Below, one piece after another: positions 13,845-49,831 of a stretch of DNA of 64,000 nt. The stretch is taken from the NCBI GenBank assembly GCA_964276015.1, contig CAXYDO010000002.1, positions 162,151-226,150 on the forward strand. Direction: 5' to 3'. Numbering within the stretch: position 1 is the first letter of the stretch; each line of letters opens with the position of its first letter. Made by a program: the position numbers and the translations under genes. This stretch comes from an uncultured Alphaproteobacteria bacterium. GTDB lineage: Bacteria > Pseudomonadota > Alphaproteobacteria > UBA6615. The notes beneath the pieces are model-generated. The model saw nothing but the letters and a program-made list of their open reading frames with translations, was not told where the DNA came from and ran no database searches.

Positions 13845-14861
13845 ATGAGCGAGACAGCAGCGCGCGAGAACAAGCCCGCGCATATTTTCGAACTCTACAA
13901 AACCATGTGCCTGATCCGTGCCTTCGAAGAGAAGTCGGAAATCGCCTTCGACGAAGGCTTTATCAACGGATCGATCCACCAGTATATCGGCCAAGAAGCG
14001 GTCGGCACCGGGGTGTGCAGCAACCTTCGCAAGACCGACTACATTCTTTCAAACCATCGCGGGCACGGCCACTCCATCGCCAAGGGCGCTGATCCGAAAG
14101 CCATGATGAAAGAACTAATGGGGCGTGTCGGGGGCACCAGCGGGGCCAAAGGCGGCTCGATGCATATCGCGGATTTCTCCGTCGGCATGCTGGGGGCCAA
14201 CGGCGTGCTCGCCGACGGCCTGACCATGGGGGTCGGCGCTGCGCAGGCCATCAGCATCAAGGGTGAAGACAACATTGTTACCGTGTTCGTCGGCGACGGG
14301 ACGACCAATCGCGGACCGTTCTATGAAGCCCTCAACTGGGCCATGGTCTTTGAACTCCCAATTCTGTTTGTTTGCGAAAACAATACCTACGCCTCCTCGA
14401 CCTTGACCCGCAGCGTGACGGCCGGCGACGGTCCGGTCGCGCGCGCCAAGGCTTTTGGCATGCCGGCCTTTGATGTGGACGGGAATGACATTTCAGCCGT
14501 CGACGAGTTGGCGGCGGACCTGATCTCTCGCGTGCGCAGCGAACAGGGCCCGCACTTCCTTCACGCCCGGACCTATCGGGTGAAGGGGCATATCTCACGC
14601 GATAAGCTGTTGTATCGCCGGGACGGTGAAACCGCAGAAAACTTGGAGAACGAACCCCTTGCCCGTTGTGCCGGATGGCTTTCAGAGAACGGGATCGAGG
14701 AAGCCGATTTGCGTGCCGCACATGGCCAAGCCTATGCCCGGATCGATACCGCGGTGGAAGCCGCCAAGGCATCCCCCTTTCCCGATGCCGCGCTTGCCTA
14801 CGCCGATGTACAGGATTTCGGCCCGCCCGAACCCTGGACAAGTACGGGAGGTGCGTCATGA
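13845..14861 (+). CDS. 2-oxoacid dehydrogenase E1 alpha subunit, copy 2 (paralogue of 10950..11969).
   Basis: 338 aa. It has the same motif set as copy 1 (HRGHGHSIAKG, GGSMHIADF, GDGTTNRGPFYEALNWA), diverged to roughly 55-60% identity by eye. RBS aaggagacaacc. Confidence 0.9.
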   Translation: MSETAARENKPAHIFELYKTMCLIRAFEEKSEIAFDEGFINGSIHQYIGQEAVGTGVCSNLRKTDYILSNHRGHGHSIAKGADPKAMMKELMGRVGGTSGAKGGSMHIADFSVGMLGANGVLADGLTMGVGAAQAISIKGEDNIVTVFVGDGTTNRGPFYEALNWAMVFELPILFVCENNTYASSTLTRSVTAGDGPVARAKAFGMPAFDVDGNDISAVDELAADLISRVRSEQGPHFLHARTYRVKGHISRDKLLYRRDGETAENLENEPLARCAGWLSENGIEEADLRAAHGQAYARIDTAVEAAKASPFPDAALAYADVQDFGPPEPWTSTGGAS

Positions 14862-30856: not shown

Positions 30857-31264
30857 TCAGCTGGCGACCAGCCCGATGACTATTCCCTGAATCGCAAACA
30901 CGCCCAACCAGTGACCCGCATCGATGATGGAGTGGGACCAGGTCGAACGCTGGAAGCCATGGTTGATGAGCATGGTGGTGAGTACGAAACCAAACCAGAG
31001 GGTGACCGCCATTTTTAGGCCACCGGACAACGACACGTCACCCAGACTGACCATCAAATGCATCAGCACATAGGCGATGATCAGCTGGCCGACGATGACG
31101 ATCACATAGAGCAATGGGCCCGCGCCAGCCTTGACCTCTTCCTCGGTCTTGCCGATCGCGGCCATCCAGGGCTTGTTGAGCGTGATGTACCACGCGGCGC
31201 TGAACACATAGCCAGCGACAAACGACACGATCAGTGCCAGCCAGTCAACATTTCCAAACTGCAT
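30857..31264 (-). CDS. Small integral membrane protein (DUF1761-like, 4 TM).
   Basis: 135 aa from the ATG at 31262-31264 with RBS ggagat. Hydrophobic throughout. Confidence 0.65.
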   Translation of the reverse strand: MQFGNVDWLALIVSFVAGYVFSAAWYITLNKPWMAAIGKTEEEVKAGAGPLLYVIVIVGQLIIAYVLMHLMVSLGDVSLSGGLKMAVTLWFGFVLTTMLINHGFQRSTWSHSIIDAGHWLGVFAIQGIVIGLVAS

Positions 31265-31274
31265 GGCTATCTCC

Positions 31275-32315
31275 TCAGTCGAGAGTGGGATCAATCACAA
31301 CCTTGCCAATGCCCGCGTTGCTCTCCACGCGGGCTTGTGCGGCCACCGCCTCGCTAAGCGGGAACACATCATCAATGAGAGCCTTCACGCCGCCCTCACC
31401 TGCCCGGGCGAAGGCCGCCTGAAGACCACCGGGCGCCTCGCGGGGTTCGCCGATGATCTGGAGCTGGTGCAGGTAGAGATAGCGCACATCGAGCGGTACA
31501 TCGGCGGCCCCCGACGCATTGCCCGCCGTAACCAGTTTCGCGCCCCGCGCCATGGCATGGATCACTTTGGGGAATTGCTCCGGATCGGCGACGCTGTCGC
31601 ACACGCCATTGACGCCCTGCCCGTCGGTGAGCTTGCGCGCTTCCGCAGTCAGGTCCTGCTTGCGGTAGTTAATGACATGGTCGGCCCCGATGGACAGGCA
31701 GGCTTGCGCCTTTTCGTCGGACCCTGCGCCCCCGATTACCTTCGCACCGGCCCATTTGGCAGCCTGGATACAGGCCGCGCCGAGGCCACCGGTGGCCCCC
31801 ATCACCAACACCCAGTCGCCCTCCTTGATTTGGAGCACATTTTCGACCTGGTTCGCGGCGGTGGCGAGGTGACGGCCGATCACGGTCGCCTCGTGGAAAC
31901 CCAGATTGTCGGGGATCAGGATCGTGCGCGCCGCGTTACTGCGCACATACTGAGCATAGCCGCCCCAGATCGTCACGCCGAGGAAGTCCACCGGACCGAG
32001 ACCGGGGATAGACATATAGGGATCGGGCTTATCTGTTGGCTGAAACAGGCTGCAGAACACCCGGTCGCCAACCTTGCGATCGGAGACATTCTCGCCCACG
32101 GCCTTGATCACTCCCGACGGGTCGACACCAAGGATATGGGGCAGTTCGGGCTGGTGTGCGTAGGTCCCCTCGCGGAGATAGATATCAAAAGTTCGATTCA
32201 CCGACACCGCGCGGACTTCCACCAGAACATCGTCGAGACCCAGTTCGGGCGTGTCGATATCCTGATAGGACAGGACATCCGTTCCCCCGAACTTCGTCAT
32301 CACCATAGCCTTCAT
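31275..32315 (-). CDS. Zinc-binding alcohol dehydrogenase / quinone oxidoreductase (MDR superfamily).
   Basis: 346 aa, with GroES-like N-domain and Rossmann motif GATGGLGAACIQAAKWAGAKVIG. Confidence 0.85.
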   Translation of the reverse strand: MKAMVMTKFGGTDVLSYQDIDTPELGLDDVLVEVRAVSVNRTFDIYLREGTYAHQPELPHILGVDPSGVIKAVGENVSDRKVGDRVFCSLFQPTDKPDPYMSIPGLGPVDFLGVTIWGGYAQYVRSNAARTILIPDNLGFHEATVIGRHLATAANQVENVLQIKEGDWVLVMGATGGLGAACIQAAKWAGAKVIGGAGSDEKAQACLSIGADHVINYRKQDLTAEARKLTDGQGVNGVCDSVADPEQFPKVIHAMARGAKLVTAGNASGAADVPLDVRYLYLHQLQIIGEPREAPGGLQAAFARAGEGGVKALIDDVFPLSEAVAAQARVESNAGIGKVVIDPTLD

Positions 32316-32342
32316 GATTTTCTCTCCTTGGCGTCATTCTGT

Positions 32343-32657
32343 TTATTCTTTCCGCATAAGCGGTTTTGCAAAACTTAGTTCGTGTCCATCCGGATCAACC
32401 AGATGAAAATAGCGCTCACCCCAGTCGGCATCGCGCGGCTCGAATTCCGGCTCCAGCCCAGCCGCAACGGTTCGTGCATGCATCCCGTCCACGTCATTGA
32501 CGTAAAAGATAGCCCGGCCCCACCAGCGAAACACGCCGGGCCGGGCAATGATATTGAGAAAACTCCCGCCCGCCTGGAAGCTGGTCAGCCGCGCATCGGG
32601 ACCACCATGAACAATATCGAACCCCAGCGCGGTGTAGAACGCTATGGCGACCCGCAT
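32343..32657 (-). CDS. VOC (glyoxalase/bleomycin-resistance/dioxygenase) family protein. The start codon is uncertain.
   Basis: 104 aa from the ATG at 32657. The first beta-strand and DLxxSxxFY motif (...SAVTLATRD-MRVAIAFYTALGF) are encoded in frame upstream, where there is no ATG/GTG/TTG before the upstream gene's stop at 32711. Confidence 0.6.
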   Translation of the reverse strand: MRVAIAFYTALGFDIVHGGPDARLTSFQAGGSFLNIIARPGVFRWWGRAIFYVNDVDGMHARTVAAGLEPEFEPRDADWGERYFHLVDPDGHELSFAKPLMRKE

Positions 32658-32710
32658 ATCGCGGGTCGCCAGCGTTACCGCGCTGAGGGATTCGACTTTT
32701 GCGTCTGACG

Positions 32711-35761: not shown

Positions 35762-35930
35762 CCCGGGTTCTGCTGATCGGATCTGCCCCCACCTTCAGGA
35801 CCGACAATCGCGCGCCCCCTCACAGTTCCGTTAGAACAGGTCGTCTACGATCGTTCGCTGAGGCGATACTTGGCTTTGACCGCCACCAGCACCCCACCTA
35901 TGATCAAGCCGACAAATAAGGGAACGAACC

Positions 35931-36626
35931 ATGACTGTGAAATACCACCTGATCAGCTCGTTTACGTGACCATGGGTCCAGCGCGCCGTGATCCTCTTGC
36001 GTGCCAAGGAAATTGAGTTCGATGTCACCTATATCAACCTGCTCGACAAGCCCGAGTGGTTTCTGGAAATATCACCTCACGGGAAAGTCCCGGTGCTCAA
36101 GGTGGGTGAAGAAATTCTGTTTGAATCCAATGCGATTGCGGAGTATCTCGACGAAGTGGTGCCGCCACGCCTCCACCCCGAAGACCCGCTCGAACGAGCC
36201 AAGAACCGGGCCTGGACCGATTTCGTGCTGACCTTCTCGAGCGCCATAAGCTCGATCCATTACTCCAAGACCAAAGAGGACATGGAGACCGCCGTCGCCA
36301 ATGTGCAGGACAAGCTTGCCAAGGTTGAAGCCGCACTCGCCGGACGCGGCAATGATGGCCCGTACTTCAATGGGCCTGAACTGGCCCTGGTCGATGCTGC
36401 TTATGCCCCTTTCCTGCAACGCTACACCTTCGTCGATAAGGTTCTGAACAACGATGTGTTGAAGGACTACCAGCTGATCAAGGCCTGGGCTGACACTCTG
36501 CTGTCAGACCCCCGGGTCACAGGCGCCGTCCCAGACAACTTCGAGGACGAGTTCGTCGCCGGCATCAAGCGCCGGGAAGTGTACGCCGCACAGTTCTTCA
36601 ACGACGCCAGCGCGGCGGCTGAATAG
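35931..36626 (+). CDS. Glutathione S-transferase, omega-like (CPF/CPW-type thioredoxin-fold N-domain), with an in-frame TGA at 35967..35969 at the catalytic cysteine position. It is either a selenocysteine-candidate protein or a nonsense pseudogene. Conservative alternative: GTG start at 35988.
   Basis: The ATG at 35931 has a good RBS (aaggga). The reading frame is MTVKYHLISSFT-[TGA]-PWVQRAVILLRAKEIEFDV...NLLDKPEWFLEISPHGKVPVLK. This aligns residue for residue with GSTO-type ...[21 protein letters not shown]...NKPEWFF..VPVL, with the TGA on the Cys of the CPF motif. Confidence 0.5.
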
Positions 36627-36629
36627 CCG

Positions 36630-37322
36630 TTGGCCGATAACGATAATCCCGGTGGCTATCGTCCCGGCGATCCGCGCTACGGATTGTCGGGGCAAACCCT
36701 GAGGGATTATTACCTTTCACTCCCCGCGCAGTTCTACGTCCGAAGCCTCTACCAGCCCGACAGTTTGCATCTACGTGACGCGGCGATGGAAGCCCATCTC
36801 GCCCATGTGCGCAGCTACGCCGAGCACATTCAGTTCGCCGGACCGTTTCTGTCTGATGACGGCGGAACACCTCTTGGCACCATGGCGGTCATCAACCTAC
36901 CGGATCGGAGCGCCGCCGAGGCTTATATTGCCGCTGACGGTTTCGCGAAGGCCGGCATGCTGCAGGCCCCCAACACCATCCGCTTCATGAGCAGTAAACG
37001 CCTGACCCAGGCGGACCGGGCCCCTGATCCAGAACTTCAAATGTTCGTCTGCGAGTGCCTTGATGGCCCAAACGCAGCTGCCTTGCGAAAGCAAAGTGCG
37101 GCCGCCCACCACACCTATCAGGGTACGATTATCGACAAATATATCGCGCACGGTCCGTTGCGCAGCGATGACGGGGTTGATTTGCTGGGAAGCCTCTTCA
37201 TCCTCGAAGTCGCCGACCGAGCCGCTGCCGAAGCATTGGTTGCCAATGAACCCATGAACGCCGCCGGCGTGTTCGGCGAAATCAACATCTATCGCTGGCG
37301 CTACGGGAAATCCCTCGCCTAG
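36630..37322 (+). CDS. YciI-like (Dabb-fold) protein with two tandem YciI domains.
   Basis: 230 aa from the TTG at 36630; the start is uncertain. Each half matches the YciI pattern (...AGPFLSDDGGTPLGTMAVINLPDRSAAEAYIAADGFAKAG... and ...HGPLRSDDGVDLLGSLFILEVADRAAAEALVANEPMNAAG...). Confidence 0.6.
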   Translation: MADNDNPGGYRPGDPRYGLSGQTLRDYYLSLPAQFYVRSLYQPDSLHLRDAAMEAHLAHVRSYAEHIQFAGPFLSDDGGTPLGTMAVINLPDRSAAEAYIAADGFAKAGMLQAPNTIRFMSSKRLTQADRAPDPELQMFVCECLDGPNAAALRKQSAAAHHTYQGTIIDKYIAHGPLRSDDGVDLLGSLFILEVADRAAAEALVANEPMNAAGVFGEINIYRWRYGKSLA

Positions 37323-37335
37323 GCAGGAGGTCCGC

Positions 37336-38364
37336 ATGGACAAGAAAATCGCGATTCTTGGATCGGGGGCCAACGGAACGGCGATCGGGGTCGACCTGAT
37401 CCGGGCCGGGCTCGATGTCACCCTGATCGATCAATGGCCAGCTCATGTGGAAGCTCTGCGCGCAAACGGGGCCGTCATCAATCTTCCTGACGAAACCATC
37501 ACCCAGGCGGTCGATGCGTATCATCTGTGCGACGTCGCCACCTTCACCAAACCTTTCGACGTCGTCCTGATGTTGTTCAAGGCCTATGACACAGCTTGGG
37601 CAGCGCGGCTGATCGAACCTTATCTGGCCGAAGGCGGGCTCCTCGTCGGGGTTCAGAACGGGATGAGCTATGCCGCCATGGTGGAAGCCGTCGGCGTGAA
37701 ACGGGCCATGGGCTGTGTCATCGAAGTCGCCTCGGAGCTCCACGAACCAGGAATCATCAAACGCTCATCCCCAATCGACGGCGGCTCCTGGTTTGCAGTG
37801 GGCAGCGCCGATCCGGCGACAGCGGGACGCGAGCAGGAAGTCGCAGAAATTCTCGGTCACGCCGGTGTGGTGGAAATCTCTGACGACATCCTCGGCGCGA
37901 AATGGATGAAGCTGGTTAGCAACGCCATGACCCTCGCGACGACCGCATTGGTGGGCCTGCCCATCGACGAAGCAGTTGAACTGCCGGGGATGCGTGATCT
38001 GATGCTCAAGGCGGGCGCGGAGGCACTGGCGGCCGGCGACGTACGCGGCCATCCGGTCAAGCCGATCTTTGGGTTAAAGCCCGAAGATATTGAGAACACC
38101 AACCAGTTGCTTGAATTGCTGCACGAGAAACTGATGTCGTTCACCCGCCCCGATACCCGGACAACGGTTCTGATGGATCACATGAAGGGCCGTCAGAGCG
38201 AGACCAATGACGTAAACGGCCTGGTTGCAGAAACGCTCACCCAATCGGGCAAAATGGCGCCCGCAAACGCTGCGATTGTCACCATTACAGAGCAGATTAA
38301 ACGCGGTGAAATCGAACCTGATCCGTCCAATCTCGCATTAATCCGAGAGCTGGTCGTAATCTGA
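37336..38364 (+). CDS. Ketopantoate reductase family protein (2-dehydropantoate 2-reductase, PanE/ApbA-like).
   Basis: 342 aa. MDKKIAILGSGANGTAIGVDL Rossmann N-terminus and the ApbA C-terminal domain. Confidence 0.85.
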   Translation: MDKKIAILGSGANGTAIGVDLIRAGLDVTLIDQWPAHVEALRANGAVINLPDETITQAVDAYHLCDVATFTKPFDVVLMLFKAYDTAWAARLIEPYLAEGGLLVGVQNGMSYAAMVEAVGVKRAMGCVIEVASELHEPGIIKRSSPIDGGSWFAVGSADPATAGREQEVAEILGHAGVVEISDDILGAKWMKLVSNAMTLATTALVGLPIDEAVELPGMRDLMLKAGAEALAAGDVRGHPVKPIFGLKPEDIENTNQLLELLHEKLMSFTRPDTRTTVLMDHMKGRQSETNDVNGLVAETLTQSGKMAPANAAIVTITEQIKRGEIEPDPSNLALIRELVVI

Positions 38365-49090: not shown

Positions 49091-49831
49091 CGTAAACCTG
49101 ATGCCCCCTGCCGAAAAACTCAGAAACCGCGCTATGATATCATCGCATATGAACTGAGATCGGAGATCACGTCTGGCGACTTTGCCTTGAATGACATGCT
49201 ACCCACCGAAATGGAGCTGTGCGCACGGTATGATGTCAGTCGCCACACGGTTCGCGCGGCCCTGCAACGGTTGCGCGAGCAGGGATTTGTCTCAATGCGT
49301 CGCGGTTCGGGAACCCGGGTCATCTCAACGGCCCCGAAGGAACCTTACGTACGATCATTTAACTCATTGTCCGAATTGCTGCATTACCCGGATACAAATT
49401 TCGAACCAAACGATATCGCTCACGTGATCCTTACGCCGGCGAATGCCGAGCGCCTTTCCCTGCAGGAGGGAACAGATTGATTCCGCATTTCTGGCATTCG
49501 CCGCTCAATTTCCAGCAATCAGCCGGTCTGCTGTCAGGAAGTTTTCGTGCTCCCGGAATATGAGTCCACGGCGCGGCGCCTATTAACCGAGCATATCCCG
49601 GTTCACCGAATTATCGAGCGCACCCATAACAATCGTATTGCACAGGCACAGCTGGAAATGGCTGCGTGCCGGGTCTCTAAAGAGGTGGCGGGCAAGCTAG
49701 ACTTGGCCCCAGGCCGCGCGGCGATATCTATCCTGCGCCGTTACGCACGCCCGAACGACACGGTGTTCGAAACCACGGTCAGCATTCACCCGAAAGACCG
49801 TTTCGTCTACTCACTGGGGATCACCTATTGA
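49091..49831 (+). pseudogene. GntR/HutC-family transcriptional regulator (wHTH plus UTRA domain), disrupted by at least two frameshifts and a premature stop.
   Basis: ATG 49091 gives MPPAEKLRNRA. After a frame change the sequence reads ...KPRYDIIAYELRSEITSGDFALNDMLPTEMELCARYDVSRHTVRAALQRLREQG...GSGTRVIS..., a GntR HTH ending at 49480. A third frame covers the middle of the UTRA domain. Track ORF 49547..49831 (...VHRIIERTH...DTVFETTVSIHPKDRFVYSL) is the UTRA C-terminus. Confidence 0.7.

Follow-up and report, generated by a model that had tools for sequence, protein, structure and literature searches.

Does an in-frame UGA at the active site of a bacterial glutathione S-transferase (GST) encode selenocysteine (Sec), or does it mark a gene that has been broken? 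The question is raised by a gene at positions 35931-36626 (+) of a 64,000-nucleotide (nt) stretch of contig CAXYDO010000002.1, from the assembly GCA_964276015.1 of an uncultured alphaproteobacterium. We refer to this whole stretch as the window, and positions are those of the window unless another locus is named. An earlier note on this DNA, made from the sequence alone, had favored a selenoprotein and had named a pseudogene and a truncated GST starting at GTG 35988 as alternatives. Here, we find that the gene very probably encodes a 231-residue GST-like selenoprotein with SelB-dependent insertion of Sec at the UGA. It is a further member of a selenoprotein family that has already been described, and is thus genuine but not new. 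The organism is an uncultured marine bacterium, and identical proteins are encoded on Fram Strait and other ENA/Logan metagenome contigs.

A conserved UGA at the catalytic position

The GST frame comprises 231 codons, from ATG 35931-35933 to TAG 36624-36626, and reads MTVKYHLISSFT, then TGA at 35967-35969 (codon 13), then PWVQRAVILLRAKEIEF and onward. This TGA is the single in-frame stop, and neither a further stop nor a frameshift interrupts the frame. When the UGA is read as cysteine, Pfam assigns the product to GST_N_2 (PF13409, 1.3e-18), with additional matches to GST_N_3, GST_N, and GST_C_2. Among solved structures, HMMER ranks GSTs of the Cys type highest, namely Leishmania TDR1, pyrimidodiazepine synthase, and the omega-class GSTO1/O2 (E-values of 1e-22 to 1e-26). 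In the alignment with 1eem, residues 9-200 of the query correspond to residues 28-216 of the chain, which places codon 13 on Cys32 of the C-P-F motif. Cys32 is the catalytic cysteine of human GSTO1 (1EEM).

Orthologues were collected by scanning one genome per GTDB species, which yielded 80 loci, all from alphaproteobacterial metagenome-assembled genomes (MAGs) whose labels include Rhodospirillaceae, Defluviicoccus, Hyphomicrobiaceae, Methyloligellaceae, and Paracoccaceae. The Cys/Sec codon is covered in 79 of these; the remaining locus (L036) was left out, its N-terminus lying off the contig. The codon is TGA in 76 loci and TGC or TGT in only three (L056, L073, and L077), and with the window this makes 77 TGA-type genes. 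The complete orthologues, each from another GTDB species, show 59-89% amino-acid identity, and the flanks on both sides of the TGA are kept as KYHLISSxT and PWVQR. The closest orthologue among the loci, L001, has a read-through product 89% identical to the window protein. The main structural claims of the earlier note are therefore upheld. It had described an ATG at 35931 with a Shine-Dalgarno sequence opening a frame that runs through the UGA as a full GST, and both the sequence and Pfam confirm this. It had placed the UGA on the active-site Cys, where the alignment with Cys32 of GSTO1 also puts it. It had further argued that such a placement is not chance and that the codon carried by orthologues would bear on the matter; the count of 76 TGA codons among 79 complete loci, against three of TGC or TGT, agrees with that view.

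The codons upstream of the TGA are conserved as protein. Among 73 distinct genes, residues K4-T12 are at least 96% conserved, apart from F11 (73%), while their codons vary synonymously with an entropy of 0.44-1.56 bit. Of the 77 TGA-type genes, 76 have a start codon 11-12 codons 5' of the TGA. The sole gene without an in-frame start in this position is that of L003, which has one extra base after the probable ATG (L003:6019-6031) relative to L002 (ATGACCGACCAAATAT vs ATGACCGATAAATAC), likely an assembly indel or a recent frameshift.

The hairpin downstream of the UGA

The UGA is followed by a hairpin that resembles a SECIS (selenocysteine insertion sequence) element. Across the Sec forms the stem consists of six base pairs, GCGCGC/GCGYGC, and the first six bases of the loop, CGUGAU, never vary. 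With the U of the UGA as position 1, the pairs are G15-C38, C16-G37, G17-Y36, C18-G35, G19-C34, and C20-G33. In an alignment of 74 Sec-type sequences (67 distinct), 100% of the cells in these six pairs hold standard pairs, and RNAalifold gives the same helix. Pair 17/36 switches between G-C and G-U, with 32 such alternations, and pair 15/38 has undergone one compensatory change, from G-C to A-U in L041.

The strongest signature of the hairpin lies in its synonymous sites. Third-codon positions 15, 18, 21, 24, and 33 show little or no variation among 66 distinct Sec-type sequences, whereas those outside the hairpin stretch (6, 12, 30, 39, 45, 57, and 60) each carry three or four bases. Of 56 conserved codon columns with at least fourfold degeneracy, only R18 (CGC), A19 (GCC), and V20 (GTG) have zero entropy over 73 genes; the entropy of the remaining 53 columns starts at 0.73 bit and averages 1.44. 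The frozen bases of R18-A19-V20 are the 5' arm and the loop start of the hairpin. In contrast, the three Cys-type genes vary at the frozen sites (CAA, CGT, CGA, GTC) and have exchanged Ala19 for Ser. Their segments fold at −2.5 to −5.0 kcal/mol, compared to a mean of −9.0 for the 77 Sec genes, and the hairpin is lost. Residue 19 deserves a remark of its own. Ala19 (GCC, 35985-35987) is found in all Sec forms, where it supplies the G and C at positions 19 and 20 of the stem, while Ser19 (PWVQRS) is found in L056, L073, L077, and the database Cys form P0120; a second database Cys form, P0119, keeps Ala19. From these sequences, the protein sequence at residue 19 appears to be coupled to the SECIS requirement.

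In the bacterial SECIS (bSECIS) consensus of the bSECISearch model, the upper stem has 4-16 bp, the apical loop 3-9 nt, and the interval from UGA to loop 16-37 nt; a G stands at loop position 1 or 2, as a rule with G or U after it, and the minimum free energy is at most −7.5 kcal/mol (PMC13188914). The stem of 6 bp, the interval of 17 nt (35970-35986), and the C-G-U that opens the loop in all 66 distinct sequences all fall within this description. As in the E. coli fdhF-type SECIS, the element lies within the coding sequence just 3' of the UGA, with a 6-bp stem and with G then U at loop positions 2-3. It differs from that type in its loop (12 nt rather than 3-9) and in that no bulged U was identified here. 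The spacer of 11 nt before the upper stem also matches E. coli fdhF.

A different pairing had been suggested in the earlier note, GGGUC (+5..+9) with GAUCC (+21..+25), that is, 35974-35978 with 35990-35994. Only 85% of the cells are paired in that arrangement, 25 of the 67 distinct sequences disrupt two of its five pairs, and no covariation is seen. Because of the broken pairs and the lack of covariation, we reject it in favor of 35981-35986 with 35999-36004. A long-range pairing of the loop UGAUC with GAUCA of codons 7-9 was also considered and dropped upon inspection of the alignment, as it is broken where codon 7 is CTC and shows no covariation.

We scanned the window and all loci for coding contexts in which a hairpin containing G comes after a TGA. 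The scan returned 71 GST sites and one other convincing case, a gene of the UGSC family found in two Rhodospirillaceae MAGs (L058:526-2226, TGA 835-837; L074:1217-2920, TGA 1526-1528), where it lies 5.2 kb (L058) and 3.8 kb (L074) upstream of the Sec-GST gene. In L058 the protein has 566 residues. Its N-terminal domain matches Pfam UGSC (PF24696, 7.8e-25) and is fused to a C-terminal region of roughly 380 residues with no Pfam match; against the NCBIfam model NF041046, 'UGSC family (seleno)protein', it scores 53 bits, which is under the model's curated cut-off of 125 bits. The TGA falls at the U of ...GIGC-U-GACTP... (C-U-G-A-C), and an 11-nt spacer leads to the hairpin GCCCGC / CGUGAU / GCGGGC. 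The UGSC gene is absent from the window, its fold is unrelated to that of the GST, and its loop is exactly 6 nt. It nevertheless shares with the Sec-GST gene the in-frame TGA, the 11-nt spacer, the 6-bp GC stem, and the CGUGAU loop. Judging from the sequences, a spacer, stem, and loop common to two unrelated families is what a common SelB would be expected to impose, and a second candidate selenoprotein gene in L058 and L074 lends indirect support to Sec decoding. In the window, both this hairpin scan and the pattern TGA-N17-CGTGAT pick out the GST site only, and every window gene examined with a TGA as its upstream in-frame stop lacked a plausible coding extension. Four extra matches to the pattern in the loci were set aside as chance, having no 6-bp stem at the right spacing and no coding context.

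These observations suggest how the gene could be decoded. The ribosome would start at ATG 35931 and translate 12 codons. At UGA 35967 Sec would be inserted in place of termination, owing to the folding of the mRNA 11 nt downstream into a SelB-binding hairpin (35981-36004) with a 6-bp GC stem and a loop starting with CGUGAU. This hairpin would recruit SelB·GTP·Sec-tRNA(Sec).

Several points weigh against a selenoprotein. With the E. coli proteins as tblastn queries (E <= 1e-3), neither the 64-kb window nor the 80 flanking loci (up to 12.7 kb long, within about 6 kb of the gene) yielded selA, selB, or selD. ARAGORN detected no tRNA-Sec either, in the window or in the 60 loci to which it was applied; in Alphaproteobacteria, selC may lie inside selB (PMC8124441). 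We infer that the Sec machinery is present in the carrier genome. At 12 nt (CGUGAU plus six variable positions), the apical loop exceeds the consensus, and no conserved extra pair is seen within it in the alignment of Sec forms. The folding energy is marginal with respect to the consensus, at −7.3 kcal/mol for the window hairpin alone, and unexceptional at −11.6 kcal/mol for 46 nt (z = +0.24 relative to shuffled sequences). Rfam has no match at gathering thresholds in the whole window, and at E <= 10 the sole match around the site is a spurious snoRNA on the other strand. Covariation is thin, with the one compensatory change in an otherwise invariant stem. The window copy also departs from two highly conserved prolines, with Leu at codon 100 (36228-36230; Pro in 65/72 orthologues) and Gln at codon 181 (36471-36473; Pro in 71/72). 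Finally, according to a recent review, no member of the family has been experimentally shown to contain selenium (PMC13188914).

Of the two substitutions, Q181 is also present in a database protein of 98% identity (P0001), and L100 is not. As to the RNA, our evidence is mainly that of the frozen synonymous sites, and is comparative rather than thermodynamic. The unexceptional folding energy and the lack of an Rfam match explain why no convincing SECIS had been seen by eye in the earlier reading.

Alternative readings of the UGA and the truncated database entries

The alternative that survives best, though still very unlikely, is that the UGA is read through as an amino acid other than Sec, for example by a near-cognate Trp or Cys tRNA, with the hairpin stimulating the event and SelB playing no part. 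The lack of Sec machinery genes in the window and in the flanks of the loci would fit this explanation, as would a hairpin loop outside the bSECIS consensus. It does not account for the position of the UGA on the catalytic Cys, which is the signature of Sec/Cys pairs, nor for an 11-nt spacer and a G-U at loop positions 2-3 that suit a SelB-type SECIS, nor for the recurrence of the same spacer and loop in the UGSC-family gene of L058 and L074. General recoding of UGA can be excluded, because TGA is the ordinary stop of about half of the window's genes.

A chance nonsense mutation (TGC or TGT to TGA) on the catalytic Cys codon, leaving a pseudogene in a decaying region, is more improbable still. 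It could draw on another gene of the window, a GntR/HutC-like regulator at about 49100-49831 that has an in-frame TGA and no canonical start, on the two lost prolines, and on the failure to find Sec machinery genes in the window. However, the same TGA is found in 76 species-level genomes, the frame is intact over 231 codons, the upstream codons are under protein-level selection, and it is only in forms with the TGA that the hairpin's synonymous sites are frozen. The window gene and L001 differ by 75 synonymous and 25 non-synonymous changes, giving a ratio of non-synonymous to synonymous rates (dN/dS) of 0.065. The marks of a pseudogene, that is, relaxed constraint, further lesions, and Cys codons in the orthologues, are not what this gene displays.

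It is equally hard to credit that the gene is an N-truncated GST of 212 residues starting at GTG 35988, with the upstream 12 codons and the TGA as an untranslated leader. In its favor, this GTG is invariant, and automatic annotation has picked such an open reading frame (ORF) for 118 of the 120 nearest homologues in the database. However, the protein would be without strand beta-1 and its catalytic residue. The supposed leader is conserved as amino acids with varying codons, and the spacing between its start codon and the TGA is kept. The neighboring CGC and GCC codons and the other arm of the stem are invariant along with the GTG, although initiation has no need of them. P0119 and P0120, the full-length Cys forms, continue through this region without a break. 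The shared TGA, the upstream codons conserved as protein, the spacing of the start codon, and the dN/dS of 0.065 are incompatible with either a pseudogene or an untranslated leader. Thus, both alternatives raised in the earlier note are contradicted by the TGA in 76 species-level genomes, the low dN/dS, and the protein-level conservation of the 12 upstream codons. The reading that it had preferred, a selenoprotein, is supported on every test that sequence data allow.

The ORF list of the window gives 35988-36626 as an open frame starting at GTG 35988, which is not the real start, and the databases repeat the same error. The 120 closest database proteins share 63-98% identity with the window protein, and 118 of them begin downstream of the UGA position. 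In these entries (P0001-P0118, GSTs of about 212 residues), a GTG or ATG within the SECIS loop or beyond it has been taken as the start, and the active site is missing. Most have 207-217 residues, and their N-termini include MILLRAK... and VILLRAK.... The only full-length entries are the Cys forms P0119 and P0120, both of which read ...TCPWVQR.... The same truncated ORF is called everywhere because GTG 35988, the codon of V20, is invariant within the loop. The truncated entries are therefore a systematic mis-annotation of a known selenoprotein family, one which annotation pipelines could mend with a family-specific rule.

Family, predicted chemistry, and neighboring genes

'Glutathione S-transferase' (COG0625) was among the new selenoprotein families reported from the Sargasso Sea (Zhang, Fomenko and Gladyshev, 2005; PMC1088965). 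Two members in the supplement of that work, AACY01041448 (MTSKYHLISFVTuPWVQRAVIVLRAKNVEF...) and AACY01726075 (MAKNIHLISSVTuPWVQRAVIVLRTKEVEF...), both have their TGA at nt 37-39 (PMC1088965). The same family returned with 12 sequences in the 2008 analysis of Global Ocean Sampling data (PMC2398784), and reviews from 2022 and 2026 list it as 'GST-like protein, PF13409' (PMC9312934; PMC13188914). Nearly all such families are known from bioinformatics only (PMC13188914), and according to the reviews no member of this one has been biochemically characterized. The window gene belongs to the same domain family (COG0625/PF13409), has its Sec codon at the same position 13, and carries the same motif, HLISxxT-U-PWVQRAVI. 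It shares with AACY01041448 and AACY01726075 the downstream nucleotides CAGCG[CT]GCCGTGAT and the SECIS core. With a GST domain, a TGA on the conserved Cys with kept flanks, the family motif, and a downstream stem-loop, the window gene shows no essential difference from the family described in 2005 and is another orthologue of it.

For selenium biology as such there is accordingly little new here, as the Sec position and the motif have been in the literature since 2005. What we add is the family's reach across 76 species-level genomes, the exact form of its conserved hairpin with the oversized loop, the near-universal truncation to 212 residues in the databases, and the CGUGAU signature common to the Sec-GST and the UGSC selenoprotein gene. 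Since Sec is the dominant form among the closest relatives (76/79), the family could be a good natural system for learning what Sec gives to a Cys-type GST.

The product is predicted to have the thioredoxin-like N-terminal domain and helical C-terminal domain of a GST. An AlphaFold2 model was made for the Cys orthologue P0120, with moderate confidence (predicted local distance difference test score, pLDDT, of 74.8). The order of elements in the model is beta-1, residue 13, alpha-1, beta-2, alpha-2, beta-3/beta-4, and alpha-3, followed by the helical domain, and Cys13 lies between beta-1 (5-10) and alpha-1 (14-25). Foldseek aligns this model to tau, omega, and DHAR GSTs with TM scores of about 0.7. 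In the selenoprotein, Sec13 would thus sit just before the N-terminus of helix alpha-1, the site of the catalytic Cys in omega, lambda, and DHAR GSTs. The glutathione-site elements V53-P54 and E65-S66 are invariant and align with the VP and ES of rat GSTO1.

Comparison with the Cys-type GSTs, namely the omega class (human GSTO1-1, PDB 1EEM), lambda, DHAR, TDR1, and pyrimidodiazepine synthase, reveals a shared GST fold, the same place for the catalytic residue in C-P-[FYW] before alpha-1 (here U-P-W), and common cis-Pro (VP) and E-S elements for glutathione binding, with HMMER E-values of 1e-23 to 1e-26 in this comparison. Unlike the omega-class enzymes, the window protein is bacterial and has Sec in place of Cys. 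Its identity to them is 24-28% by Foldseek and about 32% by a rough hand count on the HMMER alignment. It also does not have the long N-terminal extension of GSTO1, with 12 residues before the active site compared to 31. The GSTO class is defined by a long proline-rich N-terminal extension and by within-class identity above about 40%, and the window protein shows neither. Because its identity is about 25-32% and the long extension is absent, its sequence is best called that of an omega-like Cys-type GST and not of a strict GSTO member.

By analogy with Cys-type GSTs, for which a thiol-transferase/reductase scheme is established, the most likely activity of the enzyme is that of a thiol transferase or reductase dependent on glutathione, and not conjugation. 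In the omega class, the catalytic Cys forms a mixed disulfide with glutathione. The selenolate would attack a glutathionylated or oxidized substrate to give an enzyme Se-SG intermediate. A second molecule of glutathione would then resolve this intermediate, yielding glutathione disulfide.

The features of the gene and its immediate surroundings are collected in Table 1. The promoter-like site has 10 of 12 consensus matches and is the sole such site in 3 kb, but as chance alone would give 1.1, the match has no significance by itself.

Table 1. Features of the Sec-GST gene and of the genes that follow it, in window coordinates.
Feature	Position	Strand	Basis
Promoter-like TTGACC-17-TATGAT, 27 nt 5' of the ATG	35876..35904	+	Consensus match only, weak
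Shine-Dalgarno-like AAGGGA, 7 nt before the ATG	35918..35923	+	Direct sequence reading
Full coding sequence of the GST-like protein, very probably a selenoprotein with Sec at codon 13	35931..36626	+	Frame, Pfam, structure matches
Twelve N-terminal codons (MTVKYHLISSFT, strand beta-1) 5' of the UGA, omitted by gene callers	35931..35966	+
UGA at the catalytic Cys position of the C-P-[FYW] motif, very probably decoded as selenocysteine (U13)	35967..35969	+
SECIS-like hairpin, 11 nt after the UGA	35981..36004	+	Pairing, RNAalifold, frozen codons
Hairpin, 5' arm GCGCGC	35981..35986	+
Hairpin, 12-nt loop CGUGAUCCUCUU	35987..35998	+
Hairpin, 3' arm GCGUGC	35999..36004	+
GTG, codon V20 inside the SECIS loop; gene callers' start of a 212-residue 'truncated GST'	35988..35990	+
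Gene with two YCII domains, open frame starting 4 nt after the GST stop	36630..37322	+	Pfam YCII 6.5e-22, two stretches
PanE/ApbA-like gene (2-dehydropantoate-reductase family), third in the same-strand cluster	37336..38364	+	Pfam ApbA 1.2e-23

The two-YCII gene is probably co-transcribed with the Sec-GST gene. It lies directly downstream of Sec-GST in the 22 closest loci (L001-L021 and L027), and the PanE/ApbA-like gene comes next in 15 of these. In a separate clade (L022, L023, L025, L026, and L053), a DUF1761 gene is found downstream of Sec-GST instead. Because the distant Sec-GST loci have different neighbors, the context provides no firm functional lead.

More tentatively, and with rather less than even confidence, we suggest that marine and other uncultured Alphaproteobacteria may possess a lineage-specific SelB recognition code, in which the UGA is followed after exactly 11 nt by a 6-bp GC stem whose loop starts with CGUGAU, and that the GST-YCII-PanE trio may mark an uncharacterized selenium-dependent reductive pathway. 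Under such a code the GST version would tolerate a 12-nt loop, and at least two unrelated families would share the signature in the same genomes. If this is true, a simple pattern could enumerate the selenoproteomes of these lineages.

Elsewhere in the window, the earlier note had reported nonsense mutations in several nearby genes. This stands for one of them, while the other neighbor pairs examined are separate and intact, and the window is not rich in such mutations. The affected gene is the GntR/HutC-type regulator (49100-49831, +), in which TGA 49478-49480 falls within the UTRA domain (Pfam 1.1e-14). No start codon (ATG, GTG, or TTG) precedes TTG 49187 in its N-terminal helix-turn-helix region (PRYDIIAYELRSEITSGDF...), and the gene is probably a true pseudogene. 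The in-frame neighbors 14666-15841/15857-16711 and 26207-27205/25874-26194, considered as possible broken genes, are separate genes. The E1-alpha gene (13845-14861) is intact, and the region upstream of 58157 is non-coding. Lastly, two ORFs at 31263-32378 (371 residues) and 32382-32708 (108 residues) on the + strand share a frame, have no Pfam match, and are split by a TAG plus one codon. They are also adjacent in L003, and they represent either one gene with an in-frame TAG or two genes.

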